DNA of 64,000 nucleotides from a virus. Shown here piece after piece: positions 10,656 to 51,957 of the stretch. A model generated the notes under the pieces. It searched no databases and was not told where the DNA came from. It saw nothing but the letters and a program-made list of their open reading frames with translations. Each line of letters starts with the position of its first letter. The first letter of the stretch is position 1. The translations under genes were made by a program, and so were the position numbers. Location of the stretch: IMG/VR virus record IMGVR_UViG_3300025168_014097, positions 1-64,000 of that record. One strand, 5' to 3'.

Positions 10656-11648
10656 TTATTCTGATTTCCAAAACGAGTATATACCTTTATCCAATTCATA
10701 CTCATTCCAAAACATCCTTTCCCGCTTCGGTTGTTTTTTTGCCCACTCCCACATGTCAGTAAGACCTTGCTTCAAATCAATCTTTTCTGTGTAGTCTAGC
10801 AGGAATTGGGACTTCTCATATGTTGGATATGCATATTTAACCTCATGTCGACCTTCTAAGTGAACTTTATTCCCTCCACCCATTACTTCAATCAATATAT
10901 CTGCCGCTTGATTAATACTACATTCTTTTATACCACCTAAATTAATGACTTGCTTTGATGCTCTTTCATCAGTTGCAGCTTTCCACAATGGTTCTAAACA
11001 ATTATCAATATAGCTAAATGCTCGCTGTTGTTCACCATCTCCAAATATAGTAATATCTTGGTCATTCAAATATTGATACATCCATATACCTAATACATTT
11101 CTATATTTATCCCAGATATTTTGCTTGAGACCATATACGTTATGTGGTCTGATAATACACCAATCCAGATTATGTTGTTGTCCTGCTATATGAATATCTA
11201 GCTCACATCCTAATTTTGCTACTCCATATGGATCAATTGGTTGTAGTGGTGAATCTTCAGAAAATGGTGGTGTTCCGTGACCATATACAGCTAAAGATGA
11301 TGTGAATACTAATCTAGTAACATCATATTTAATACAATTGTTAATAATTTCAGCTGTTGATATTAAATTATTCTGATAGTTGTATTTTCTAATGAATGGG
11401 CTCAATCCTTCTGCTGCATATGCTGCAAAATGATATACAAATTCTGGTTTATGTTTTTTAAATACCTTATCCAGCCCGTCATTAATATCTTGCTTATAGA
11501 ATTTTACCTTTTTATTAACGTTTTCTTTAAATCCGCCAGATAAATCATCTACCCCAATTACTTTATAGTCTGTACTTTCTATGATCCAATCTGCCAATCT
11601 GGATCCGAGTAATCCTGCTACTCCGGTTATTAAAACTGTTTTACTCAT
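10656..11648 (-). CDS. NAD-dependent nucleotide-sugar epimerase/dehydratase (UDP-glucose 4-epimerase-like)
   Basis: TGVAGLLGS Rossmann motif, TSS, YGVAK catalytic motif, RPHNVYG. Confidence 0.9.
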   Translation of the reverse strand: MSKTVLITGVAGLLGSRLADWIIESTDYKVIGVDDLSGGFKENVNKKVKFYKQDINDGLDKVFKKHKPEFVYHFAAYAAEGLSPFIRKYNYQNNLISTAEIINNCIKYDVTRLVFTSSLAVYGHGTPPFSEDSPLQPIDPYGVAKLGCELDIHIAGQQHNLDWCIIRPHNVYGLKQNIWDKYRNVLGIWMYQYLNDQDITIFGDGEQQRAFSYIDNCLEPLWKAATDERASKQVINLGGIKECSINQAADILIEVMGGGNKVHLEGRHEVKYAYPTYEKSQFLLDYTEKIDLKQGLTDMWEWAKKQPKRERMFWNEYELDKGIYSFWKSE

Positions 11649-12426
11649 AATTAATTCCCTTAAATTTATTTATTTGTGGTTTATGTGAATTGTTAGGATG
11701 TCGAATTGGATCGATACCCCATTTATACTTAAATATATTTGCTGCTGACTGTTCGCTAGCTTTGAATCGCTCACCTTCTTTTCCATTCTTAGTTGCTACT
11801 GAGCCGAAGTGATAAAAATTTAATTTTCTAGATCTTTTGAATGTTTTTCCAGCTAGCTCTAATTTCAAAAAGAAGTCCCAATCACATATAAATGGTGACC
11901 CATAGATAGTATCAAATCCCCCTACCATCATATAGTCAGTCTTTGACATGTAAAATGGAAATATTTCTCCATCATCTGTCAATTTATTTGTTCTATAGGT
12001 TTGTTCGTCTGTAGTGAACTTATCTAGATCAAAATCTTCTACTCCTCCAAAATCAGCTGTTTCAAAATTAAATATGCTAGGAGCTCGTTCAATCTGGTTT
12101 GGTGTTATAATTGTTTTACCATCTTCCGATTCTAAAATTACATCCCAATCCTTTGGAAATACATTATCATCATTTACGATAAGTATGTATTCATTAGTTG
12201 CATTCCACACACCTACATTAAGTGAATGCTGCATACCTTGATTTGTTTCATTTGGTACAAATCCTACACGATCTTTATACTTTTCAATTATGTGTTTACT
12301 TTCTTCAACAAATCCATCAATAACACATATCATCTCATTATTATTCTGTTGATTATCTAATGCTGATTGCAGACATATATCTAAACATTCAGGACTTCTA
12401 TAGCTTGGTATTATTACACTAATCAT
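11641..12426 (-). CDS. Glycosyltransferase family 2
   Basis: ISVIIPSY, NDD motif, VGGFD, DWDF. Confidence 0.85.
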   Translation of the reverse strand: MISVIIPSYRSPECLDICLQSALDNQQNNNEMICVIDGFVEESKHIIEKYKDRVGFVPNETNQGMQHSLNVGVWNATNEYILIVNDDNVFPKDWDVILESEDGKTIITPNQIERAPSIFNFETADFGGVEDFDLDKFTTDEQTYRTNKLTDDGEIFPFYMSKTDYMMVGGFDTIYGSPFICDWDFFLKLELAGKTFKRSRKLNFYHFGSVATKNGKEGERFKASEQSAANIFKYKWGIDPIRHPNNSHKPQINKFKGINYE

Positions 12427-38939: not shown

Positions 38940-40878
<1,939 letters not shown>

Positions 40879-40890
40879 AACTACTCTCCT

Positions 40891-41622
40891 TTAATTGTTT
40901 TGTGTTTGTACTAAATAATAAACAGACTTATAGTCTGGGCCTTCTATTGTTACTCTAGCTAATCCGTCAGGACTAACCTCCATTAATCCTGAAGTCATAT
41001 CTCTATTGGCTAGTAATATTTCCTTCATATGATCTGCTGAAAAAGAAATATATTCTAAATCAGGTACTTCTGTATTTGCGTTTGTTACATCAAATATAAT
41101 CTTATTAGTCGCCATCGAGTCTGAGTGACCTATAATTACTTGCAATTTGTCTCCGAAATCATTTGCTACTACTGTGAAATTTGTTTCTTCAGATAAAGCT
41201 GCTTTTGCTCTGATAAATCTAGACACAAAGTCTCCATCTACTGTAATAGTTGTAGTGAATTCTGGTATCTGTTTAAGTTTTGGAGCTTTTGGTATTATCG
41301 ATTCTTCTGATAGAATGTACTCTAACATTGTAGTACTGTCAGTCATCCCTATTGAATAATTGCGACCTTCTTGATGATTTACCAATACGTTAATATCAGT
41401 ATCTAATACGCTAATAAGTTTTTTGAGTTGTGATGTTGTGTATATACAATAATCACCTTCTGTGAATCCGATGCCCTTATACTTAACGTTTCCTAATAAC
41501 GTCTTGTCATCAGATATAAAGTTTGTGCGCATCTCTTCTTTAGATACATTCCACTTTACAGATTCGACACCACCTCCTAATGAGTATTTGTCTATAAAAC
41601 CATTTAATTTTTGTTTGTCCAT
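40891..41622 (-). CDS. Sliding clamp (gp45-like)
   Basis: 243 aa alternating beta/alpha pattern, GLARV..YYLV C-terminus, located between PolB and clamp loader. Confidence 0.7.
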   Translation of the reverse strand: MDKQKLNGFIDKYSLGGGVESVKWNVSKEEMRTNFISDDKTLLGNVKYKGIGFTEGDYCIYTTSQLKKLISVLDTDINVLVNHQEGRNYSIGMTDSTTMLEYILSEESIIPKAPKLKQIPEFTTTITVDGDFVSRFIRAKAALSEETNFTVVANDFGDKLQVIIGHSDSMATNKIIFDVTNANTEVPDLEYISFSADHMKEILLANRDMTSGLMEVSPDGLARVTIEGPDYKSVYYLVQTQNN

Positions 41623-41663: not shown

Positions 41664-44177
41664 TTAACTAAAATCGAAAAATTTCCGTATCATTTTCGTA
41701 TTTTTTGCTGGTAATTTACCCCACTTCAATGCAGTGTAAAAAGCCGATAATTTATTTTCTAAATCTGACTGAAAGTGTCTATTATAGTCGATATATTTTT
41801 CTATATATTGAACTATCTCAATCGGATCGTCATATCCCTTCATTGCTAAACTGTCATATCCATAAGGATTCTGTTTCAAGTATACCCATTTAATTTTATC
41901 ACTACTCCGAATCTCACCTAAATGCGTCTGCTTGAGTGCTGTGATCATATCATTGTACGAAATGGCTGCTTTGACATGTGCTGGGCATCCTTTACGAGTT
42001 GCTGTTCGTGTAGACCCATCAAATTCCAACTTATACTTTTGAATATTCTTTACACCCGTCGGCTTAGCTACATCTAGTATAGGAAGAGTTTCTATCTCAT
42101 CTCGAAAGTCTAATACTTTATTATCAACATACTCTTGTGTTTTATTTTGTAGAATATCTTGCAATACTCCTGCCATAAAAGTTCTAAGTGCAGCTGGAAA
42201 GTTTGATCGTACAACATCAATACCCTTGACATCTAATTTATCTACTGGGTGTCCCTCAACGTTAATGATCCATTGAGCATATCGTTTCTTAGCTATCCAT
42301 ATTCCCGCCTTTGCAATAGTCTCTTGTTTAATGTCAAATCTGTGATCGTCTATATTAAACAATTTCTTAGCCATAACATCATATGTTTTATTCATATGAT
42401 CTTGAACATCTTTTGCAATGATAAGAATCTTCTCAGACATTATTTTATCGTCTGTTATATCAACGTTGGGATACCGCTTCTTAACAAGTGGAAGAGCTGA
42501 GAAGAATACTGAGTCGGTATCTGTATAGATGCAATGTTCCTTAACTTCTTCTAACTCTTTGCTATAATACTGATCACCTATTTTAGCTGTGGTCTTAATT
42601 ACAGTTTGTCCTGTAGTGGTTACAGCTTCTGCGTTGTCCAAGTCAAAGAATCTAAACGATGCTAAACCTAATACCCCATACATTGAGTTCAATAGGATCT
42701 TTTGAGTATATTGCTTTTGATCGTAGAATTCAGCCTTGACCGTATCACCTTCTTTCTCATACTTCTTACGTAGGTTTTTATACTCAACTCTTTCTTCAAA
42801 CCACGTATTCAAAATAGATGGAACAAGTCCAGGTCGCGACTTATCAAACATAACACCATTAGCAGCTACTGAGTAATTCTTTTCTTCAATGAATTCTTTA
42901 TACTCAGCCATATGCATTTTCTTATTAGTTTTACCTAACTGAACCGTAAAGTTTCTATCTTTATCCTTATTGAACGCATCTTGATCCCAATCAATTACCT
43001 TTCCCATTTTAGTTTCAGGACTGATATTGAGTGACATAATAATAGAAGGATATAGGGATGTTAAATCTAAATCGTATATCCACTCATACCTACCAGGGTT
43101 TGGTACCTTAACAAATGCTCCAGTAAACTTACCTTCCCGCTTACGCTTTTCCGGTTTATTCTTTGTTACGATTCCTAGTCTATTACAATATGTAAGAATT
43201 GCTCCTTCGAGATAATTAGATGTAATATGGATATACTCATATCGTACATGACCCTTATGACATATTGCTCTAGTCAGATCTAAGAATTTTAACTTATCAT
43301 CTAACCGCTTTACGATCTCAACATCATTTAAGTTATACTCAATATACTTATCAATATCCTTTTCGAATAAATCATCTAGAGTTCCATCATACTCAATCTT
43401 CCCCAATCCAACTTCAGTCTGTCCTATTGCGTCTAGTCTATACGATGATCTTTCACCAATAGTATATTTACGATATAATGGTAGGTAATCTAAACAAGAC
43501 ACTCCTTCTATATAATAGCGATCTAAATGCTCTCTATAGTTTACCTTTCCAATGGGACTCAATGAGTTTGCATAATCATCACCCAATACAGTTTTTATTC
43601 TATTGTAAAGATACGGTACATCAAATCCTTCAATGTTCCATCCAGTGAGAATCGTTGGATCTAATTCTACATACTTCTCTAGAAATTTGTATAGAAGTTC
43701 TCCTTCAGTTTTACATATTACTACTTCACAATTGTCTTTAGATACACTCTTTACACGATCCTTTTCATCTAATACGAAAACTCCATACTTATCTATCGAT
43801 CGTTCATACCAAGCTATTGCTGTAATCTTATTTACTGGATCTCTCCAATCAGGGAAGCCTTGAAGTATTTCAGTCTCAATATCAAAGAACACTTCTCTAT
43901 GATTTGTAGATGGAAAGTCTGAGTCTCCATACTCATGAATCAATGCTTTAGTTTCCATTGGAACATCATATTCATATAGTTTACCCGATCGTTCATCTTC
44001 TTCCGACCATCGTTTAACAACTCGTACAGTTTTACCATCAATAGCTTTCCTCTGACCTCTTGGATCTTTGAGGTAAGCATATCGATACTTACTTATCGGG
44101 TTCTTGATATGACCTAACTCGTCATCCCAAATATGAACCGTACGAGTTTTGTAATCTACATAAATATTTTGATACAT
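41664..44177 (-). CDS. Family B DNA polymerase (gp43-like)
   Basis: ExoI DIET, ExoII N..FD, ExoIII YN..D, DLTSLYPS, K..LNSMYG, YTDTDS, KKRY. Confidence 0.96.
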   Translation of the reverse strand: MYQNIYVDYKTRTVHIWDDELGHIKNPISKYRYAYLKDPRGQRKAIDGKTVRVVKRWSEEDERSGKLYEYDVPMETKALIHEYGDSDFPSTNHREVFFDIETEILQGFPDWRDPVNKITAIAWYERSIDKYGVFVLDEKDRVKSVSKDNCEVVICKTEGELLYKFLEKYVELDPTILTGWNIEGFDVPYLYNRIKTVLGDDYANSLSPIGKVNYREHLDRYYIEGVSCLDYLPLYRKYTIGERSSYRLDAIGQTEVGLGKIEYDGTLDDLFEKDIDKYIEYNLNDVEIVKRLDDKLKFLDLTRAICHKGHVRYEYIHITSNYLEGAILTYCNRLGIVTKNKPEKRKREGKFTGAFVKVPNPGRYEWIYDLDLTSLYPSIIMSLNISPETKMGKVIDWDQDAFNKDKDRNFTVQLGKTNKKMHMAEYKEFIEEKNYSVAANGVMFDKSRPGLVPSILNTWFEERVEYKNLRKKYEKEGDTVKAEFYDQKQYTQKILLNSMYGVLGLASFRFFDLDNAEAVTTTGQTVIKTTAKIGDQYYSKELEEVKEHCIYTDTDSVFFSALPLVKKRYPNVDITDDKIMSEKILIIAKDVQDHMNKTYDVMAKKLFNIDDHRFDIKQETIAKAGIWIAKKRYAQWIINVEGHPVDKLDVKGIDVVRSNFPAALRTFMAGVLQDILQNKTQEYVDNKVLDFRDEIETLPILDVAKPTGVKNIQKYKLEFDGSTRTATRKGCPAHVKAAISYNDMITALKQTHLGEIRSSDKIKWVYLKQNPYGYDSLAMKGYDDPIEIVQYIEKYIDYNRHFQSDLENKLSAFYTALKWGKLPAKNTKMIRKFFDFS

Positions 44178-44181
44178 ATAT

Positions 44182-44337
44182 CTAAACTAATTCTTCAATT
44201 ATTCCTACAATTTCACTAACAATTAATACTCCCATTGCTATCGTTAAATCGAAAGGTAATAATATATACCCTAGTATTCTTATTCCTGATTTTACAAAAC
44301 TAATTGTCTGATGCATTTTTGCGTCTGGTTGTTTCAT
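44182..44337 (-). CDS. Small membrane protein
   Basis: 51 aa from ATG 44337 with GGAG RBS; hydrophobic, ends EELV. Confidence 0.6.
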   Translation of the reverse strand: MKQPDAKMHQTISFVKSGIRILGYILLPFDLTIAMGVLIVSEIVGIIEELV

Positions 44338-44338
44338 T

Positions 44339-45184
44339 TTACTTCTCCAATATATTGCGCATCCAATTAATATTTGCATTAATCATTTTTTCTACCGACA
44401 TTTGTTTATTGTCAATACTATGCTTCTTAGCTGTTCTCTGAATATGAAAGTCCACCTCTAATTCTGACTTACCGTTCTTCAATCCAGTTGTACTATCATC
44501 TAATAATACACCATTGATCCCATGCCAAAAAGGTGAAGAGCTATCATTCGTGTCCATAACACCTAAAGCTCTCTGTGTGATCAATTCTCTTGGTCCATCG
44601 CCCAATCCTAAATAGTGATGGGAAAGATCTTTTCTTTGAGATACTAATCCTTCTCTACACATATAAGCAGTTGCAAAAATTCTATTAGCTGCTATATCGT
44701 TCGTACCAGTCAACCCACAAAATGCATTAGGCATTCCTAATATAGACATTCCCATAACTTTTACTTCTGGAAGCTCTGCTAATCTTTTATAGCATTCTAA
44801 CCATCCTTTATAGTTTCCCGTCTCTGATTGTGGTACTGCCATTATTTCATAGTCTTCATCCTTAGCCATTTCAATAAAAGCAACTGTGGAGTCGTATGTT
44901 ACACTCCAAGGCTCGAATGGATAATCTGGCGCTACTACATAAGTTGGCTTCACACCACTGTCTGCAATTAACTTCATTAGTGGTTCTGGATCTAAACTCT
45001 TTTTAAATTCAAATGCACCATTATCACATATGATGGTATCACCTCTATCAGCTTTTTCTCTATAATAAGCTGCGTATTGTTTATCTTTTAATAAATGTGC
45101 TAATATCAAGTGAAAATCAGCATCTTCCGGTATAAGGTCTAAATACTCTACTGGAGCTATGTAACCAAATTTAGTTTTTTTCAT
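44339..45184 (-). CDS. dpdA: TGT-fold DNA guanine transglycosylase candidate (DpdA family, possibly DpdA3)
   Basis: DNGAFE (cf. TGT DSG), PD, AVPQ, HYLG, DSSSP in TGT order; located in a folE-queE-queD cluster. Confidence 0.72.
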   Translation of the reverse strand: MKKTKFGYIAPVEYLDLIPEDADFHLILAHLLKDKQYAAYYREKADRGDTIICDNGAFEFKKSLDPEPLMKLIADSGVKPTYVVAPDYPFEPWSVTYDSTVAFIEMAKDEDYEIMAVPQSETGNYKGWLECYKRLAELPEVKVMGMSILGMPNAFCGLTGTNDIAANRIFATAYMCREGLVSQRKDLSHHYLGLGDGPRELITQRALGVMDTNDSSSPFWHGINGVLLDDSTTGLKNGKSELEVDFHIQRTAKKHSIDNKQMSVEKMINANINWMRNILEK

Positions 45185-45632
45185 ATTTTTTCTTTTCCAT
45201 ATATTGTTTAACTTCTTGTAATCCTAATTCATTATCTTTAAGTAAATATTCTTCAAATGTATTTCGATCAAATTCAATATCCTTTGAATCTCCTCTACTA
45301 CAAAATCGTTCAAAACACATATCTAAAGGTGTATTCATCCAAATCATTTCTGCTTCTGGATATGCTGATACAATCTCTACTTGTCTTGGCCCACTTATTA
45401 CTACTCCTTTTTTCTTAGTAGTTCGTCTAAGTTCTCCAATCTGATAGATAATTTGTGTAGATATCTCTGGATGACCTTGTAGTTTATCTCGCTTATTTGT
45501 ATCTAATATTCCTCTGACTATGTCTGAGATTTCTATAAGATCATAATCTAAATCATCTGATAGTAATCTAGCTTCATAAGTTTTTCCGCTACAGATTGTT
45601 CCTGCGACAAATATTATATGATCTCTATACAT
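45171..45632 (-). CDS. P-loop nucleotide kinase (NMP/dephospho-CoA kinase-like)
   Basis: IFVAGTICSGKT, SD.VR, SGPR, ER..SR lid. Confidence 0.75.
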   Translation of the reverse strand: MYRDHIIFVAGTICSGKTYEARLLSDDLDYDLIEISDIVRGILDTNKRDKLQGHPEISTQIIYQIGELRRTTKKKGVVISGPRQVEIVSAYPEAEMIWMNTPLDMCFERFCSRGDSKDIEFDRNTFEEYLLKDNELGLQEVKQYMEKKKYEKN

Positions 45633-45972
45633 AGACCTCTGCACCATTCTCGTTATCCTCAAATACGGAGACGTATACGCATTTGAATTCTTTTAATATT
45701 TCTTCAGCTAACATTTCACAGGACTTAGCTCCGAACTCATGTGTCCTGGATTGTAGATTATAATATGTATGTCCTAACCATTGTTCAATATCTCTCTTGA
45801 ACATGATAAACTCTACATCTCTATCATCATGATTAACTTGTTTCTTAGCAGTGATAAACCATTTATGTCTATGCATACTTGATAAGAATCCTACTTCTGG
45901 GACTATTGATTGAGCATCTGGCCAATTATGTAATCCTTCTATTTCTAACTTTACTATTACGTTTGTCTTCAT
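45625..45972 (-). CDS. dpdL: QueD-paralogous T-fold protein, DpdL-like (predicted CDG decarboxylase)
   Basis: H..., LSSMHRHKWF (LxxxHRH), SCEMLA, V.EDNEN; second T-fold protein in the cluster, without the QueD CxxxHGH cysteine. Confidence 0.68.
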   Translation of the reverse strand: MKTNVIVKLEIEGLHNWPDAQSIVPEVGFLSSMHRHKWFITAKKQVNHDDRDVEFIMFKRDIEQWLGHTYYNLQSRTHEFGAKSCEMLAEEILKEFKCVYVSVFEDNENGAEVYV

Positions 45973-45980
45973 ATTACTCT

Positions 45981-46011
45981 TAATATACGATTTTTTATTC
46001 GATCTAGCTAC
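45981..46011 (-). promoter_or_regulatory. Conserved promoter variant GTAG-N20-TATATT
   Basis: Minus strand GTAGCTAGATCGAATAAAAAATCGTATATTA, directly upstream of the dpdL-kinase-dpdA-polB run. Confidence 0.65.
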
Positions 46012-46526
46012 TAAACCTTTAGAAACTTTTTATATGCACTTGACATTCTATCAAAAAATTTAGTTTTAAGAATAGCAGAATGAGCTTTATTAAGCTCTTC
46101 TCTATCTGCTATATTTATTAAAAATGTTGGTGCAAATGATCTGGGGTTGTATCCATCTATCTCAGTAACTTCATCGTTAGGATTAAAGCATATGATTTTA
46201 TATTGTGGATATCTATTCTTTTTAAGTAGTTTGTTTAGAAAACTCTGATAGGATCTAGTTTCATTAGATGATAATTCACCTGAGTTTACTAGAGCAAATA
46301 AAGCTGACTTGTACTTACTTTTATGAAAAACCTCAACACGTTCTATAAACGTTTCAATATTTGGATCAAATACATCTATCATCATTAGATCTTTATCTAA
46401 TTCAGTACCAACAAATGGACAGACCGGCATATTTCCATATTCAGGACGTTTTTGTTTTATGATAAAGTCGAGATAACCCCTAACTCTCTTTTTTAGAGTT
46501 GTATATGGACATCCTGACTTTTTCAT
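46011..46526 (-). CDS. Hypothetical protein with CPF motif
   Basis: GNMPVCPFV, FNP.D; no confident family. Confidence 0.65.
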   Translation of the reverse strand: MKKSGCPYTTLKKRVRGYLDFIIKQKRPEYGNMPVCPFVGTELDKDLMMIDVFDPNIETFIERVEVFHKSKYKSALFALVNSGELSSNETRSYQSFLNKLLKKNRYPQYKIICFNPNDEVTEIDGYNPRSFAPTFLINIADREELNKAHSAILKTKFFDRMSSAYKKFLKV

Positions 46527-46529
46527 ATC

Positions 46530-47024
46530 TTACTTAACGTCTTTATCTTTTTGCCACTGACCATCATATAATTCTGCAGAATTGTTCTCAAACATAATAA
46601 TTTGAGCTAACCGTGCACCTTTTTCCAATACAACTGATTTGGTAAGTGTCATTACACCACCCATCTGATCCACTTCAAATCCTGGATCATACACACCACT
46701 TGTTACAGTTCCACCCATTCTAAGAATAGATGATCTCTGACGGATGAATGCAGTTGTCTTATCATCTAGCTTACATCCTTGTTCAAACGTAACACTATAA
46801 ATCCCTGGATGTAGTACCCACACATTCCGTTCATCACCTTCTGATTTTTCTACAGTTGATAATGTAACATCATCATATTTATCCAACATAGTAGCATCTG
46901 AGAATAACATTCCACCTCTGATAGCTTTTACATCTACTACGGTTAGATCATAACCTACTTGAGCTTTTTTTCCTTTACCATTTGTGGTAAGCATTTGCTC
47001 AACTTGATTTGCATTTAATAACAT
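46530..47024 (-). CDS. dCTP deaminase / trimeric dUTPase family protein
   Basis: GYDL, RSS, DPGF, RLAQI, YDGQWQ. Confidence 0.85.
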   Translation of the reverse strand: MLLNANQVEQMLTTNGKGKKAQVGYDLTVVDVKAIRGGMLFSDATMLDKYDDVTLSTVEKSEGDERNVWVLHPGIYSVTFEQGCKLDDKTTAFIRQRSSILRMGGTVTSGVYDPGFEVDQMGGVMTLTKSVVLEKGARLAQIIMFENNSAELYDGQWQKDKDVK

Positions 47025-47025
47025 A

Positions 47026-47175
47026 TTATATCTCGAATCCTAAATTCAATACCATAAGCCTAAATTTACTCCCATACCACTTTACTTCTAATACAGTGAA
47101 GGTTCCAATTCTACATTCTAAATAATACTTTTCTTTTTTGTTTCCAGCATCAAAGCCGTTTATCCAATTTACCAT
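47026..47175 (-). CDS. Small hypothetical protein (49 aa)
   Basis: MVNWINGFDAGNKKEKYY...NLGFEI; fills the gap exactly, GGAG RBS; below the ORF-track cutoff. Confidence 0.6.
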   Translation of the reverse strand: MVNWINGFDAGNKKEKYYLECRIGTFTVLEVKWYGSKFRLMVLNLGFEI

Positions 47176-47177
47176 TT

Positions 47178-47717
47178 TTATTCTCCGTTTTCTAATTTGT
47201 AAATAGCAGGAAGATTTCTACTTAATCCATTGTCGTCTAATCCATAACCAACGACCCACTCGTCGTTAATTTCAAATCCGTAAACATCCATTGGATGATC
47301 TCCACCTTTTCTTTTTAATAATGTTACTATCTTGATACTATTTGGTAATTGTGAACTGAGATGTAAATATACCTCTTTCATTGTTTCACCCGTATCAATT
47401 ATATCTTCTATAATATACACATTTTTTCCCTGAATAGCAACTTCTATATCTTTTAATATTTTAACTCCTCCTGAGTTATCCTTTCCTTCATATGACTTAG
47501 CTCTTATAAAATCTATTTCACACAATCCGTGGTATTGTTTTACCAAGTCACTGAAGAACATAAATGCTCCATTTAATACGCATATAAATACCGGTGGTGA
47601 GGATGCATTTCTTTTATCTTCAACTTGTTCTATCATTTGAGCCATCTCTACAATCCTTGATTGTATCTGGTCGTGTGTTATCATTTGTTCCATACTAAAT
47701 ATCTTTTCTTGTTTCAT
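47178..47717 (-). CDS. hpt: Hypoxanthine/guanine phosphoribosyltransferase
   Basis: VLNGAFMF, KSY, IEDIIDTGET PRPP loop, WVVGYGLD..RNL. Confidence 0.92.
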   Translation of the reverse strand: MKQEKIFSMEQMITHDQIQSRIVEMAQMIEQVEDKRNASSPPVFICVLNGAFMFFSDLVKQYHGLCEIDFIRAKSYEGKDNSGGVKILKDIEVAIQGKNVYIIEDIIDTGETMKEVYLHLSSQLPNSIKIVTLLKRKGGDHPMDVYGFEINDEWVVGYGLDDNGLSRNLPAIYKLENGE

Positions 47718-47718
47718 G

Positions 47719-48183
47719 TTATTCTTTATATATCGCTGAATTATTGCCATTTTCCATAAACTCTACACTTGAGATTTTAACACGGCCATCAGTTTCTAGT
47801 TGTACAAACTTGTTTAGTTTATTAAACACATACTCTGCAAACTTCTCTGCTCCAGTAGCTTCAACTTCTCTTAACTGTATAACTCCTAGATCAGATAATG
47901 ATTGAAACATTAATGCTTCTGGATCATCTTTAGCTATAACGACTGTATGATCAAACATATAGTCCATCCATGCTTTTGGTTGCATACCATCTATAAGATT
48001 TTTAGCTCTCTTCATGCCTCCGAAGTCCCATACCCAATTTTTATGATCCAACTCTCCTTCAAATACTACCTTGAATGATACAGCGTATCCATGTAAATAT
48101 TTACAATGAGTTTCTACTGCTTTCCATTGTCTAAAGCAGCAAGTGAATCCACTGAATAGTTTGGTTGATTGATATTTTGCCAT
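47719..48183 (-). CDS. queD: 6-carboxy-5,6,7,8-tetrahydropterin synthase
   Basis: HCKYLHGY, WVWDFG, FDH, AEKFA, E..NSA. Confidence 0.85.
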   Translation of the reverse strand: MAKYQSTKLFSGFTCCFRQWKAVETHCKYLHGYAVSFKVVFEGELDHKNWVWDFGGMKRAKNLIDGMQPKAWMDYMFDHTVVIAKDDPEALMFQSLSDLGVIQLREVEATGAEKFAEYVFNKLNKFVQLETDGRVKISSVEFMENGNNSAIYKE

Positions 48184-48190
48184 ATTGTAT

Positions 48191-48349
48191 TTACCCTTTA
48201 TTGTTTTGTTTATCATATTGATGTATAGCTATTCTTAACTTTGTAATTAAATCTTTTACATCATCTGGATCTAGTGTTATTGCGCAACATGTATCCTCAA
48301 TATGATCTTCTAGTTCTTTTACAATAGCATATATTTCTTTTACAGTCAT
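48191..48349 (-). CDS. Small hypothetical protein (52 aa)
   Basis: MTVKEIYAIVKELEDHIEDTCCAITLD...; ATG overlaps the queE TAA; below the ORF-track cutoff. Confidence 0.55.
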   Translation of the reverse strand: MTVKEIYAIVKELEDHIEDTCCAITLDPDDVKDLITKLRIAIHQYDKQNNKG

Positions 48350-49122
48350 TATACACCACGTTCTATGTCATATGCTATAATATGATCTCTCCCAGTCATA
48401 TTATATCCATGTTCTGCTACCATTTCGAATACTAAAGGATACATCTGAATTAACGTTTCTCTCGTATCTCCTGCAGGCATTATATAAGTCTTATCTTTCG
48501 GAATATCTAATTCAATCCTATACGCTTCAATTTCTGCAAGATTTTCATCTGTTCCATCCCATACTGGCTTGAAATGGTAATCTTTGTGAAATGACATCAT
48601 TTGTTTTATTGCTTCCGTATTTTGTCTTTTTCTGTTATGTGTATCTATAAATCTTTGGTCAATAACTTTCCCAGCTGGAGTAATAGCTCCAACAACAGGA
48701 ACGGAATTACTAAACTTAGGACTAAGACTAATAAGATCAATAGGATAATCGGTTTCAACAAAAGCAGATCCTTCAGTTTCAATAGTAATAATAATATTTC
48801 TTTCATAAGCAAAGTGTGTTAACTCATTAACCAACGCTGGGTGCATTGTTGGTGATCCACCAGTTAACATCATTTCTTTTACTTGTGGATTCTCGTCATA
48901 TATTTTGACTATATCATTAAAGGTAAATGTACCTTTTTCTGGATGTATGGAGGTATACCATGAGTCGCACCATCCTCCTTCACCAAAGTAGCAACGGTGA
49001 GTACAACCAGTAGTTCTAACTGCAATTGTTGGTCTTCCAAACCTACTTCCTTCGGATTGAACACACCTATATACTTCTAGTATAGGTAATACCTTATCGT
49101 AATCTAAAATTCGTTTATTCAC
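48349..49122 (-). CDS. queE: 7-carboxy-7-deazaguanine synthase (radical SAM)
   Basis: QSEG..G, R..GCTHRCYFGEGGWCDS (Cx3Cx7C), TGGSP, IETEGS, SPK. Confidence 0.9.
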   Translation of the reverse strand: MNKRILDYDKVLPILEVYRCVQSEGSRFGRPTIAVRTTGCTHRCYFGEGGWCDSWYTSIHPEKGTFTFNDIVKIYDENPQVKEMMLTGGSPTMHPALVNELTHFAYERNIIITIETEGSAFVETDYPIDLISLSPKFSNSVPVVGAITPAGKVIDQRFIDTHNRKRQNTEAIKQMMSFHKDYHFKPVWDGTDENLAEIEAYRIELDIPKDKTYIMPAGDTRETLIQMYPLVFEMVAEHGYNMTGRDHIIAYDIERGV

Positions 49123-49763
49123 TATGCCAATCTACTTTGATCTATTAGATTAAAAAATTCTGCCCTTGTAATATCAGCTTCGATAAATCTTCCAGACATT
49201 TGAGATGTTTTCATAACACTATCATGTTTAATACCTCTACACTTAACACAATTATGTTGTGATTCAATAACTACTGCAACTCCTCTATGTCCTTCACACA
49301 ATTTTTCAACGTGATCGTGAATTTGCTTCGTCAATGATTCTTGAATATTTGGTCTTCTTGAATAAAAGTCAACTATACGGTTCAACTTACTTAACCCAAC
49401 TACCATATCAGTCTTCTCTTTTCCTGGGATGTAAGCTACATGAGCTACTCCTGAGAATGTAAGATTATGATGTGCACACATACTCATTACCGGTATTCTT
49501 GTTTGGCATATTAGTCCCGTATAACCTTCATCGTTTGGGAATGCAGTAATAACTGGTTCAGCTCCTATCGATCCTGCGATCAGGTCATTTACCCATGCTT
49601 TTGCAACTCTTTGTGGAGTTCGATCACTATGCTTGTCGGCTTTCCAATCAAATCCTAATGCTTCTAAAAATTGACCGTAATGTACTGCAGCTTGTTCAAT
49701 CATTAAAGCTTTCTCAGCTTCTGTTCTTGGCATATTGCCATTCGCTTTTTTTAATAAATCCAT
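49122..49763 (-). CDS. folE: GTP cyclohydrolase I
   Basis: [31 protein letters not shown]. Confidence 0.95.
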
Positions 49764-49794
49764 AACCTTTTCTTTTCTTTATTATTATATTACT

Positions 49795-49826
49795 TAAATA
49801 TAAGAAATATAATTCGTTTATACAAC
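49795..49826 (-). promoter_or_regulatory. Conserved promoter GTTG-N20-TATATT
   Basis: Minus strand GTTGTATAAACGAATTATATTTCTTATATTTA upstream of folE. Confidence 0.72.
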
Positions 49827-49840
49827 AGTTTCTACTTTTT

Positions 49841-50035
49841 TTATTTGATCCATTCTTCTAGTTCAGTTGGTGTTGGCCATGTTAAAGCTTTTTGACACTT
49901 ATCACACACCCATCTTGTATCACTTACCTTTACAGTCTTTATCGTTTGATTTTTGTGCCTGCACTTGTTTTGATAGTCCTCTATTTCCTTCTCGATTTGC
50001 TTCAACCGTTTGGTCATATCGTTCATGTTTATCAT
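49841..50035 (-). CDS. Small coiled-coil plus zinc-finger-like protein
   Basis: CRH...CDKC; GGAG RBS before ATG 50035. Confidence 0.55.
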   Translation of the reverse strand: MINMNDMTKRLKQIEKEIEDYQNKCRHKNQTIKTVKVSDTRWVCDKCQKALTWPTPTELEEWIK

Positions 50036-50097
50036 GAGATCTCTCCGTAGTGTTACGTAACATTTCCTCATAATATAACCGTTCAATCCAATCTTCT

Positions 50098-51957
50098 TTA
50101 TACAATCTCACAAGAACCTCCTGCGCAGGCTAGTTCACCTTTAAGATCAGTTTCATCTTTTTCTTCTACAATATTAGATAAGTCTATTTCAGTTAACGAC
50201 TTTAACATTTCGTTATATTTTTCTTCTGTGATATCTTCGAATGGTGCTTGTGTATATGTTCCACCATTATAAGGTAGTACTGATAAACCATTATAGTGTT
50301 TTCTATTTTCCCACATCCATTCACCCGCATATTCCCACTCATTGTCTCTTAACGAAACGGTTGCAGACACGTTATGTGTATTAGATCCATTCCTATGTCC
50401 TGGAGACACCCATTCTTGAGCTACCTTCTTTACTCGTTCTAATAACTGGAATGGAGATTCAGTTCGCAATATTGAACCTTCTGGTGATTTCTGTGGTATT
50501 TGAATTACAGCTGTATCGTGTGGACTGAAGTATTCGTCTTCAACTAGCTCTGGATGGTGTTCGTTGAGATATTTATACATTGATTCATTTTTACCAACTC
50601 TAATTCTTCTGATATAATAATCGTTGTGCCATGCGTGGATACCTGATGATGTACCTAATGTCAATGAGGTAGTTCCTGCAGGCTTGACTGTTGTACATCT
50701 TGCTGATTGCTTAATTCCTATAAGTTTTGCAACTCTAGCATTTTCCTTCTTAACAATTTTTGCAGCTGATTTCATATCATATCCTAATACTACACCCGAG
50801 CCAATACCTGTCATTGATATTCCTATCAATGCATCTTTTTCAGTAGTATCTTGCCATACCTCTCTTAAATAGTGAAAGTTTGTATATCCTGCTTGAAGAG
50901 TTCCAATAAATGCAGCTGACTTTACCCTTGCTTCAAAATCTTCTTGTGATTCTATATCACTAGCATTTACTTCACATAGATTACAAAATTGATACGGTCG
51001 TAAAGCTATTTCACAGCAAGGATTAGTTCCCCAGTCTTTATCATTGTTAAGATATATACCAGGTTCTCCTGCTCCAGACAACTCTACTCTTTTCCAAAGA
51101 TCCATGAAAAATTCTTTAGTTATTTTGTGTCTCATTAAACATGCTGAGTTATTTGCTCTACCCCTCTGTGGATTCAATTCCCACCAATTACCACTTTTAC
51201 AACCGATCATTTCATTATCATCAGCGCTAAATAAACTAATAAGAGCAGCTCTTCTTATTCCTCCTGCTAATACAGCATCTGCAATGTGGCAAACTATATC
51301 GTGGACTTCAATTGTCGATAATTTATCTCCCGATTCTTTTTCCTTCAACATTCCATCAATCTTAACCAAACATTCTTTTAATGGTTGAGGTCCTGGTGCT
51401 TTACCACCCGATGTTACAAGTCTTGCACCTTTTGGTCTAATATCAGAATAATCAAATTCAACACGACTTCCACCACCATTCATGTATGATTTCATAAGAA
51501 CTTTTACTGCGTCTGCCCATCCTTCAATACTATCACTAATCAAATATCTTTTCTTCCTTTTAGGATATGGTTTTTGAATTACTGAGAGTTGACTTACATG
51601 ATGTTTCTGCACTGAATACCCCACTCCCGTTCCACCTAGCAATAAGAACATGCATTCACTGAATGATTCAATTGAATCGATTGGAAGATATGCACAGTTA
51701 TATACTCTATTAGGTGATATCTCAATTGGCTTACCTGCAAATTGCATAGATCTCATAGATGGTAATATCTTTTTATCATATACCATTTTATACACTTCTT
51801 CAATATCAGCTTTGAGTGCTGGGTATTTTTTTTGATGCATTTGCATATTACGCGTTACTAATTCTTCCCATGTCTCTCTTCTATTCAGTTCTGGCACGTA
51901 CTTTGCATACTTCATATAGACAGTAATGTCTGATAGAATTTTGTTTGAAATTTCCAT
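50098..51957 (-). CDS. nrdJ: Class II (B12-dependent) ribonucleotide reductase, monomeric RTPR type
   Basis: NC, G.GVG, RRAA, TNPCCEI, KPAGTTS, C-terminal ACAGGSCEI. Confidence 0.92.
   Translation of the reverse strand: MEISNKILSDITVYMKYAKYVPELNRRETWEELVTRNMQMHQKKYPALKADIEEVYKMVYDKKILPSMRSMQFAGKPIEISPNRVYNCAYLPIDSIESFSECMFLLLGGTGVGYSVQKHHVSQLSVIQKPYPKRKKRYLISDSIEGWADAVKVLMKSYMNGGGSRVEFDYSDIRPKGARLVTSGGKAPGPQPLKECLVKIDGMLKEKESGDKLSTIEVHDIVCHIADAVLAGGIRRAALISLFSADDNEMIGCKSGNWWELNPQRGRANNSACLMRHKITKEFFMDLWKRVELSGAGEPGIYLNNDKDWGTNPCCEIALRPYQFCNLCEVNASDIESQEDFEARVKSAAFIGTLQAGYTNFHYLREVWQDTTEKDALIGISMTGIGSGVVLGYDMKSAAKIVKKENARVAKLIGIKQSARCTTVKPAGTTSLTLGTSSGIHAWHNDYYIRRIRVGKNESMYKYLNEHHPELVEDEYFSPHDTAVIQIPQKSPEGSILRTESPFQLLERVKKVAQEWVSPGHRNGSNTHNVSATVSLRDNEWEYAGEWMWENRKHYNGLSVLPYNGGTYTQAPFEDITEEKYNEMLKSLTEIDLSNIVEEKDETDLKGELACAGGSCEIV

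Follow-up and report, generated by a model that had tools for sequence, protein, structure and literature searches.

A phage DpdA3/DpdL locus with a conserved nucleotide hydrolase and kinase: possible replacement of guanine by 7-deazaguanine at the deoxynucleotide level

How some bacteriophages swap every guanine of their DNA for 7-deazaguanine is unsettled, and DpdA3, the only agent proposed, has failed heterologous tests according to the main text of Cui 2023 (PMC10516641). It is reported there that deoxyguanosine (dG) is wholly replaced by 7-deazaguanine (dDG) in Cellulophaga phage phiST, and that replacement is also complete in phages immuto 2-6A and CP220. The phiST products CGPG_00067 and CGPG_00065 were named DpdL and DpdA3, CGPG_00068 was noted as a dUTPase or MazG, and CGPG_00064 and CGPG_00066 were stated to lack homologues in other deazaguanine phages. 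DpdL and DpdA3 alone gave no dDG in Escherichia coli, the authors describe their tests of DpdA3 in this host as unsuccessful, and the ADG nucleoside was found in the cytoplasm of CP220-infected cells (PMC10516641). Here we describe a related locus in a 64,000-nucleotide stretch of viral DNA (positions 1 to 64,000 of IMG/VR record IMGVR_UViG_3300025168_014097, hereafter the window), in which the genes at 41664-51957 are assigned by homology to the DpdA3/DpdL system for replacing genomic guanine with dDG. Comparison with related loci shows that the DpdA3 core includes a protein resembling dCTP deaminase (DCD-like) and a kinase-like protein, often together with a 6-oxopurine phosphoribosyltransferase (PRTase). 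Since these companions travel with DpdA3, the core is wider than FolE-QueD-QueE-DpdL-DpdA3.

Every gene of the block lies on the minus strand (ORF listing). The principal genes are given below in the order of transcription, in which an ORF of 171 amino acids (aa), considered further on, stands between the DCD-like gene and dpdL; the evidence for each assignment follows in brackets.

50098-51957, minus strand: class II (B12-dependent) ribonucleotide reductase (RNR), closest to the monomeric ribonucleoside-triphosphate reductase type (RTPR) (TIGR02505, Pfam)
49122-49763, minus strand: FolE, GTP cyclohydrolase I (PF01227, 1.7e-45; NF006824, 1.3e-45)
48349-49122, minus strand: QueE, radical-SAM 7-carboxy-7-deazaguanine (CDG) synthase (phrog_2076, 1.3e-45; Radical_SAM, 1.3e-06; TIGR03365, 5e-15)
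47719-48216, minus strand: QueD, 6-carboxytetrahydropterin synthase (PTPS, 3.8e-14; phrog_2389, 2.4e-37)
47178-47750, minus strand: Hpt-type (type I) 6-oxopurine PRTase (TIGR01203)
46530-47024, minus strand: DCD-like protein, dUTPase superfamily (PF22769, 5.2e-13)
45625-45972, minus strand: DpdL, proposed CDG decarboxylase, QueD paralogue, 115 aa (phiST homology; phrog_17812, 5.7e-25)
45171-45662, minus strand: P-loop protein with the nucleoside monophosphate (NMP) kinase fold (AAA_18 type), 163 aa (AAA_18, 2.5e-07)
44339-45184, minus strand: DpdA3, guanine transglycosylase with the tRNA-guanine transglycosylase (TGT) fold, 281 aa (phiST homology; AlphaFold2 fold)
41664-44177, minus strand: PolB, family B DNA polymerase with exonuclease domain (DNA_pol_B, 4.3e-44; DNA_pol_B_exo1, 3.5e-21; phrog_262, 2.3e-185)

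Like the window, phiST possesses FolE, QueE and QueD; no match to QueC was obtained in the 81.7-kb record that contains the window, in keeping with dDG as the final product without proof of it. In both phages the genes for DpdL, the AAA_18 kinase-like protein and DpdA3 follow one another in the same order just upstream of the polymerase, with a nucleotide pyrophosphatase gene just ahead of dpdL, and the DpdL and kinase genes overlap (by 41 nt for gp040/gp041 of phiST and by 38 nt in the window, TTG start). The pyrophosphatase, however, is MazG in phiST and DCD-like in the window, with no similarity between the two; phiST has a split Pol III alpha instead of PolB, and the window adds the Hpt-type PRTase, the class II RNR and the 171-aa ORF. 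In agreement with this, phiST yielded no PRTase homologue at E<=1e-3 (tblastn with the window Hpt as query), and the 18.8 kb of it that were examined contain no homologue of the RNR. The gene order and identities put forward in a preliminary description of this DNA are borne out by the ORF list, the family matches and the phiST homology, and the overlaps it claimed for the kinase gene (the one with dpdL and another of 14 nt with dpdA3) are present; its gene list was correct for the genes it named and left out the 171-aa ORF.

At the protein level, the DpdL of the window shares 38% identity with phiST gp040 (CGPG_00067; E 4e-24) and has no Pfam match at E<=0.01. Its motif LSSMHRHKW carries Trp at the Phe position of LxxxHRHxF, which in DpdL stands in place of the CxxxHGH of QueD (Cui 2023, PMC10516641, main text). 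The kinase-like protein is 28% identical to phiST gp041 (CGPG_00066; E 4e-15), homologues of which also occur in 10 IMG/VR loci among those numbered L005-L084 and in Chryseobacterium phage MA9V-3, contrary to the statement of Cui 2023. DpdA3 is 26% identical to phiST gp042 (CGPG_00065; E 1e-19) over its full length, matches phrog_20335 (4.5e-14) and, as a profile, the DpdA of immuto 2-6A (99.5% probability) and gp055 of Campylobacter phage CPt10 (98.4%). The DpdA3 profile has no match at E<=1 among PDB sequences, and the relationship to TGT was seen by fold search only: the AlphaFold2 model (pLDDT 95.4) retrieved TGT 2z1x with Foldseek (E 9.1e-09; TMq 0.52-0.64 among the matches listed). Residues D54, D87 and D214 are invariant in an alignment of 49 sequences, and we take their roles to be catalytic. 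The median isoelectric point, used as a proxy for DNA binding, is 5.3 for DpdA3 and 5.6 for DpdA1; both are acidic, and the measure does not discriminate between them.

The census of DpdA3 loci was based on the best 80 of 339 IMG/VR relatives and four GenBank phages (84 loci, 1.01 Mb). Genes were counted with profile HMMs built from clusters found in these loci, and the resulting counts replace the lower ones of a single-protein phmmer census (six PRTases, 11 kinases). DpdL was detected in 75 loci, the DCD-like protein in 78, FolE in 53, the PRTase in 35 and RNR in nine. Three profiles recovered a kinase-like gene in 74 loci (AAA_18 in 11, the T4 gp1-type deoxynucleoside monophosphate (dNMP) kinase DNMK, PF21448, in 12 and DUF3310 in 51), and five more loci, from a clade without these three, carry an AAA_28/dNK-like P-loop gene, which brings the total to 79 of 84. 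Restriction to the 38 loci whose flanks reach at least 3.5 kb upstream and 3 kb downstream gave 37 with the DCD-like gene, 29 with a kinase, 25 with a PRTase and six with RNR; the dereplicated set of 49 rows gave 47, 39 and 21 for the first three. As a control, 86 loci (1.53 Mb) around relatives of the phage 9g DpdA (DpdA1) were searched in the same manner: no kinase profile matched even at E<=1, DpdL was absent, and a DCD-like protein occurred once. Conversely, among the best 80 of at least 568 relatives of the DCD-like protein, 77 represented new loci, and 67 of these hold DpdA3; most of the other ten are truncated on the flank expected to carry DpdA3. The gene arrangement is thus more than chance because it recurs across loci, and the DCD-like gene is the most faithful companion of DpdA3, a role missed in the preliminary description, which had noted the presence of a dcd/dut gene. 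That description had also suggested looking for the kinase and hpt genes beside dpd genes in other phages. The kinase-like gene is found with DpdA3 (79/84) and not with DpdA1 (0/86), and its link to the dpd genes therefore stands; the outcome for hpt is given below.

The proteins that accompany DpdA3 differ from lineage to lineage. The neighbourhood consists of MazG, DpdL, AAA_18 kinase and DpdA3 in phiST, of PRTase, FolE, PRA-PH/MazG-like pyrophosphatase, DpdA3, DpdN and AAA_28 kinase in immuto 2-6A, and of an HD+AAA_33 protein, DpdA3 and AAA_28 kinase in CPt10, which serves here as a genomic stand-in for CP220, presumably of the same genus (Firehammervirus). Over all loci, the same positions around DpdA3 are taken by kinases of four families and hydrolases of three folds (DCD-like, MazG-like and HD).

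The kinase-like protein of the window has a Walker A motif GTICSGKT, and its AlphaFold2 model (pLDDT 79.3) is closest in fold to 3lw7 (Z 13.4, rmsd 2.8 A over 136 residues), followed by UMP kinase (Z 12.4) and CMP kinase (Z 11.3). Other P-loop kinases, T4 polynucleotide kinase and gluconate kinase among them, score Z 10-11 against the same model, so that the fold leaves the substrate class wide. A profile search of the PDB likewise returned 3lw7 (8.1e-07), and single-sequence phmmer against the PDB gave nothing useful. Judging by their domains, two of the four kinase families are dNMP-kinase types, namely the T4 gp1-type DNMK and DUF3310, the sole Pfam domain of T7 gp1.7, a protein which phosphorylates dTMP and dGMP as related in PMC11897194 with reference to Tran 2012. 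In most of its loci the DUF3310 gene has its start within the final codons of dpdA3 and overlaps the dpdA3 stop, and in Rhizobium phage RHph_I1_18 a DUF3310 domain forms the C-terminal part of a fusion protein with DpdA3 (L002, 9998-11266, QIG70629); the QIG70629 record is annotated as a DUF3310 protein only. Aeromonas phage Ahp1 encodes a canonical gp1 kinase elsewhere in its genome (3.1e-50) and, in addition, a divergent DNMK paralogue adjoining DpdA3. In two loci (L009, 6729-7841, and L017, 6729-7841) a single ORF of 370 aa fuses an AAA_18 kinase-like domain with FolE, whose two parts are encoded by separate neighbouring genes in the sister loci.

The DCD-like protein exceeds the cut-off of PF22769 (49.8 bits against 27) and stays under those of the archaeal-type dUTPase NF002598 (77 bits against 130) and of TIGR02274 (31 bits against 93); its PDB match is 9w59 (6.3e-07). 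Residues D26, R97, S98, R102, D113 and Q141 are the same in 99-100% of 75 family members. In addition to the DCD-like gene, both Ahp1 and Vibrio phage D479 encode a canonical dUTPase at another place in the genome, which weakens the view that the DCD-like gene is a plain housekeeping dUTPase; in genomes with a single copy it may serve as one. We propose that the protein is a putative dNTP pyrophosphatase dedicated to the DpdA3 system. The DUF3310 and DCD-like genes of L054 and L071 are separated by a gene for a HAD-type 5'-3' deoxyribonucleotidase (phrog_2643, 4.2e-28; 1327-1821 in L054, 3915-4409 in L071), and in L016, a 257-kb contig, a 307-aa ORF with a GGDEF motif (10797-11720) lies between DpdA3 and the DCD-like gene and looks like a diguanylate cyclase.

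The window PRTase reaches 153 bits against HGPRTase TIGR01203 (cut-off 150), and in the PDB it matches 4qri (1.9e-34), E. coli Hpt (3.6e-30) and in total 56 solved chains of the hypoxanthine PRTase (HPRT) family at E<=1e-05. Both motifs singled out in the preliminary description, EDIIDTG and LLKR, are present. The Asp of the phosphoribosyl pyrophosphate (PRPP) loop (D119), which we take to be the residue contacting N7 of the base, is invariant in 34 of 34 phage PRTases (MAFFT). At the conserved Lys column (LLDK in E. coli) the LLKRK of the window has Arg, with Lys one residue earlier, in the MAFFT alignment, and a gap in the HMMER alignment; the PRTase of locus L005 also has Arg in this usual O6-Lys column (MAFFT), and L176 shows LKRK, as in the window Hpt, in its C-terminal tail. 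Nearly all other PRTases linked to DpdA3 are of the Gpt/XGPRT type, and the corresponding slot of close relatives, immediately ahead of the DCD-like gene, encodes sometimes an Hpt-type and sometimes a Gpt-type enzyme. The PRTase gene of DpdA3 loci usually abuts queD, queE or folE. About 20 of the DpdA1 control loci encode a protein of ~300 aa in which a C-terminal FolE is preceded by a PRTase-like domain of ~120 residues (for example L145, 9028-9933, and L138, 8209-9144, of 9g-like phages); this domain matches the Gpt-type profile at E 2e-06 to 6e-04 and has the motifs DDIIDSG and WVVFPWE. Hence the co-occurrence anticipated for hpt was found (35/84 loci, 25/38 with ample flanks), but it is not specific to DpdA3. 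Because of the adjacency to FolE, QueD and QueE, the FolE fusions, the alternation of Hpt and Gpt types and the invariant Asp, we favour for the PRTase a probable role in generic guanine salvage feeding FolE, rather than one particular to DpdA3. This upholds the part of the first proposal of the preliminary description that had the PRTase recycling guanine for FolE; its other part, a kinase acting in the salvage loop, survives only within a rival explanation. In one DpdA3 locus, L070, the gene immediately ahead of dpdL (8072-9007) encodes a PRPP synthetase (ribose-phosphate pyrophosphokinase; Pribosyltran_N, 7.7e-55).

The association of a hydrolase, a base-modifying enzyme and a kinase, supported by the census, the reciprocal search and three lineages, recalls pathways in which a modified base enters DNA from the nucleotide pool. 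In the 5-hydroxymethylcytosine (hmC) pathway of T4, gp56 is a dCTPase, gp42 a dCMP hydroxymethylase and gp1 a dNMP kinase. The DpdA3 module would likewise unite a dNTP pyrophosphatase, a base modifier and a dNMP kinase beside the polymerase, one base is completely replaced in both, and kinases of the T4 gp1 type themselves adjoin DpdA3 in 12 loci. The modifier of T4, however, is thymidylate synthase-like, whereas DpdA3 would be a base exchanger of the TGT fold whose action on a mononucleotide is inferred. In Z-genome (2-aminoadenine) phages with MazZ, PurZ and DatZ, a hydrolase of the MazG or HD type removes the canonical dNTP and supplies dGMP, and the modified base is incorporated pre-replicatively. 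The MazG-like proteins of phiST and immuto 2-6A and the HD protein of CPt10, all beside DpdA3, are similar to these in enzyme type; the chemistry and enzymes differ, and the hydrolase of the window has a DCD-like fold. The DpdA1 systems of 9g-like phages share with the window a TGT-fold transglycosylase with the DSS(S)xW Asp motif as well as FolE, QueD and QueE. Their preQ0/G+ insertion, however, is partial and post-replicative, and their loci differ from the window in lacking the kinase and DpdL, in having a DCD-like protein only once, and in the PRTase-like-FolE fusion of about 20 of them.

On this basis the following route may be envisaged. FolE, QueD and QueE would convert GTP to CDG, which DpdL would decarboxylate to 7-deazaguanine. 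The DCD-like enzyme would hydrolyse dGTP to dGMP, DpdA3 would exchange guanine for 7-deazaguanine on the deoxynucleotide, the kinase encoded beside DpdA3 would turn the resulting dDG monophosphate (dDGMP) into the diphosphate (dDGDP), and host NDP kinase would produce the triphosphate (dDGTP). PolB would then put dDGTP into DNA, which would explain complete replacement. Meanwhile the Hpt-type PRTase would convert the displaced guanine to GMP, refilling GTP for FolE and removing the product of the exchange. We judge this deoxynucleotide route the likeliest, because the triad of hydrolase, modifier and kinase is a pre-replicative signature and is specific to the DpdA subfamily that reaches 100% replacement; the explanation as a whole, PRTase salvage included, is nevertheless advanced tentatively, with less than even confidence. 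Its central element, that DpdA3 is a TGT-fold exchanger acting not (or not only) on DNA but on free dGMP from a dedicated dGTP pyrophosphatase, with a dedicated dNMP kinase phosphorylating its product, so that 7-deazaguanines enter during replication as dNTPs, is possible and is likewise put forward with reserve.

Several points weigh against this route. We know of no TGT-family enzyme that acts on a mononucleotide, and DpdA3 keeps the fold and the invariant Asp residues of its DNA- and RNA-acting relatives. The nearest named relatives of the DCD-like protein are archaeal-type dUTPases, the AAA_18 kinase-FolE fusion of L009 and L017 fits a guanine-to-GTP loop equally well, and the main text of Cui 2023 (PMC10516641) concludes on post-replicative insertion. 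Five of the 84 DpdA3 loci show no kinase. In addition, the counts show phylogenetic clustering: kinase types are distributed along the DpdA3 clades, with only five label changes on the tree and therefore few independent events. One must also bear in mind that the control represents one fairly narrow 9g-like clade (57-100% identity), that the profiles detect these subfamilies only, the canonical dUTPase of phage 9g being missed by them, and that Pfam at E<=0.01 does not recognise the FolE-fused PRTase-like domain.

The close rival is the accepted post-replicative model combined with a salvage loop. DpdA3 would exchange guanine within DNA, the PRTase and the kinase would recycle the excised base through GMP and GDP to GTP for FolE, and the DCD-like protein would be a dUTPase or pool sanitiser that happens to share the operon. 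The TGT fold of DpdA3, with Asp residues as in polymer-acting transglycosylases, favours this model, as do the kinase fused to FolE, the PRTase abutting or fused to FolE, QueD or QueE, and the dUTPases as nearest named relatives of the DCD-like protein. Post-replicative insertion is moreover what Cui 2023 (PMC10516641) propose in the main text for all DpdA families. Yet DpdA1 phages would also release guanine, and their loci contain no kinase (0/86) and a DCD-like protein once (1/86). Two of the kinase families are of the dNMP type (the T7 gp1.7 domain, active on dGMP and dTMP, and the T4 gp1-type DNMK), canonical dUTPases are already present in Ahp1 and D479, as is a gp1 kinase of the canonical kind in Ahp1, and a dedicated hydrolase, of three unrelated folds beside DpdA3, would be left without a clear task. 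The failure of DpdL and DpdA3 alone in E. coli (Cui 2023, PMC10516641) also speaks against the model, which we regard as a serious possibility, if a doubtful one.

The second proposal of the preliminary description was pre-replicative in another form: HPRT would phosphoribosylate 7-deazaguanine or CDG, the kinase would phosphorylate the product, the class II RNR would reduce it and PolB would incorporate it, leaving DpdA3 to mop up residual guanine. Every gene required is present in the window. The RNR resembles the NTP-reductase type, although it scores under the RTPR cut-off of TIGR02505 (1.9e-79; 268 bits against 340); it also matches Pfam Ribonuc_red_lgC and RNR-II_ins_dom (PF21995, 1.4e-07; 32 bits, over the cut-off of 27). 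PRTases of deazapurine antibiotic pathways act on CDG or preQ0, and the Arg in the usual O6-Lys column of the window and L005 enzymes, together with the LKRK tail of L176, could point the same way. However, RNR occurs in 9/84 loci, all within the window's own clade, and is probably a clade-specific supplier of dNTPs outside the conserved core; because of this the proposal as written is unlikely. It is further at odds with the PRTases of DpdA1 systems, fused there to FolE, with the alternation of Hpt and Gpt types in one slot, which argues for a generic guanine activity, with the N7-contacting Asp invariant in 34/34, with the dNMP type of the kinase families, and with phiST, in which neither homologue was detected within the limits given above. 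The HPRT-kinase-RNR form of the idea thus falls, and the pre-replicative principle gains support in the form of the hydrolase-DpdA3-kinase route, at which the preliminary description hinted by setting free nucleotides beside DNA as candidate substrates of DpdA.

That the accessory genes are ordinary phage nucleotide metabolism sharing a replication operon, with no specific tie to dpd genes, seems improbable: kinases, dUTPases and RNRs are indeed common in phage replication modules, the counts cluster by clade and the promoter scan described below is at chance level, but ordinary genes would not account for the DCD-like protein in 78/84 against 1/86 loci, the kinase in 79/84 against 0/86, the reciprocal 67/77, the four kinase families and three hydrolase folds in one neighbourhood, the DpdA3-DUF3310 fusion, or the second copies of canonical genes adjoining DpdA3 in Ahp1 and D479.

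The remaining ORFs of the block are the following.

49841-50086, minus strand: 81-aa ORF between the RNR and FolE genes
48191-48349, minus strand: 52-aa ORF between the QueE and QueD genes
46011-46526, minus strand: 171-aa ORF of no family, between the DCD-like gene and dpdL
44182-44379, minus strand: 65-aa ORF between the DpdA3 and PolB genes

The 171-aa ORF has no Pfam or NCBIfam match, its Atlas matches are viral hypothetical clusters with weak DUF1415/DUF6875 leads only, and a homologue was found in none of the 84 DpdA3 loci, including the 94%-identical relative L005. It was accordingly rejected as a member of the pathway, and is an insertion relative to the closest relative, outside the core. 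The block is tightly packed, the widest intergenic gap being the 153 nt between the PRTase and DCD-like genes (47025-47177); on the minus strand this gap contains, by eye, an ORF of 49 codons whose stop overlaps the start of the DCD-like gene (ATATAATATG). A scan for sigma-70 promoters returned 49 sites against 51.9 expected, and promoter and terminator counts are both at the level of chance, so they speak neither for nor against the single promoter claimed in the preliminary description.

Downstream of PolB, after a 243-aa ORF (40891-41622), homologues of GroEL and GroES are encoded at 38940-40878 (minus strand); in the Flavobacterium phage immuto 2-6A, GroES directly follows the polymerase, as it lies near PolB here. 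The record itself is an IMG/VR fragment of 81,685 bp (CheckV completeness 42%), and its source resembles phages of Bacteroidota (34% GC). Weak tblastn matches to phiST DpdA3 (E 1e-05 to 8e-05, 22% identity) were also obtained in Bacillus phages BSTP5, BSTP8, BSTP10, BSTP12 and BSP7, and in two of these records the matching region carries the annotation of a NadR-like or a polynucleotide kinase gene.

We could not find the extension of the conserved DpdA3 core by a hydrolase, a kinase and often a PRTase described in print. The main text of Cui 2023 (PMC10516641) contains none of the terms kinase, phosphoribosyl, HPRT and pre-replicat. Our literature search met DpdA3 in no relevant paper beyond that article and its preprint, and found no proposal of a kinase or a dGMP-level route.

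DpdA3, unlike DpdA1, is nearly always accompanied by a nucleotide hydrolase and a kinase, and these companions, though without sequence relationship, replace one another from lineage to lineage. This provides a concrete gene set for reconstitution, and a testable alternative in which replacement takes place at the level of the dNTP pool. The link between the PRTase and FolE, meanwhile, suggests that salvage of guanine belongs generally to the synthesis of deazaguanines in phages. If DpdA3 does act on dGMP, it would be the first enzyme of the TGT family known to act on a mononucleotide. Should the pool route prove true, it would change the classification of these modifications and provide enzymes for making 7-deaza-dGTP analogues, and it would explain why replacement reaches 100% with DpdA3 when none of the other DpdA families exceeds 30%.

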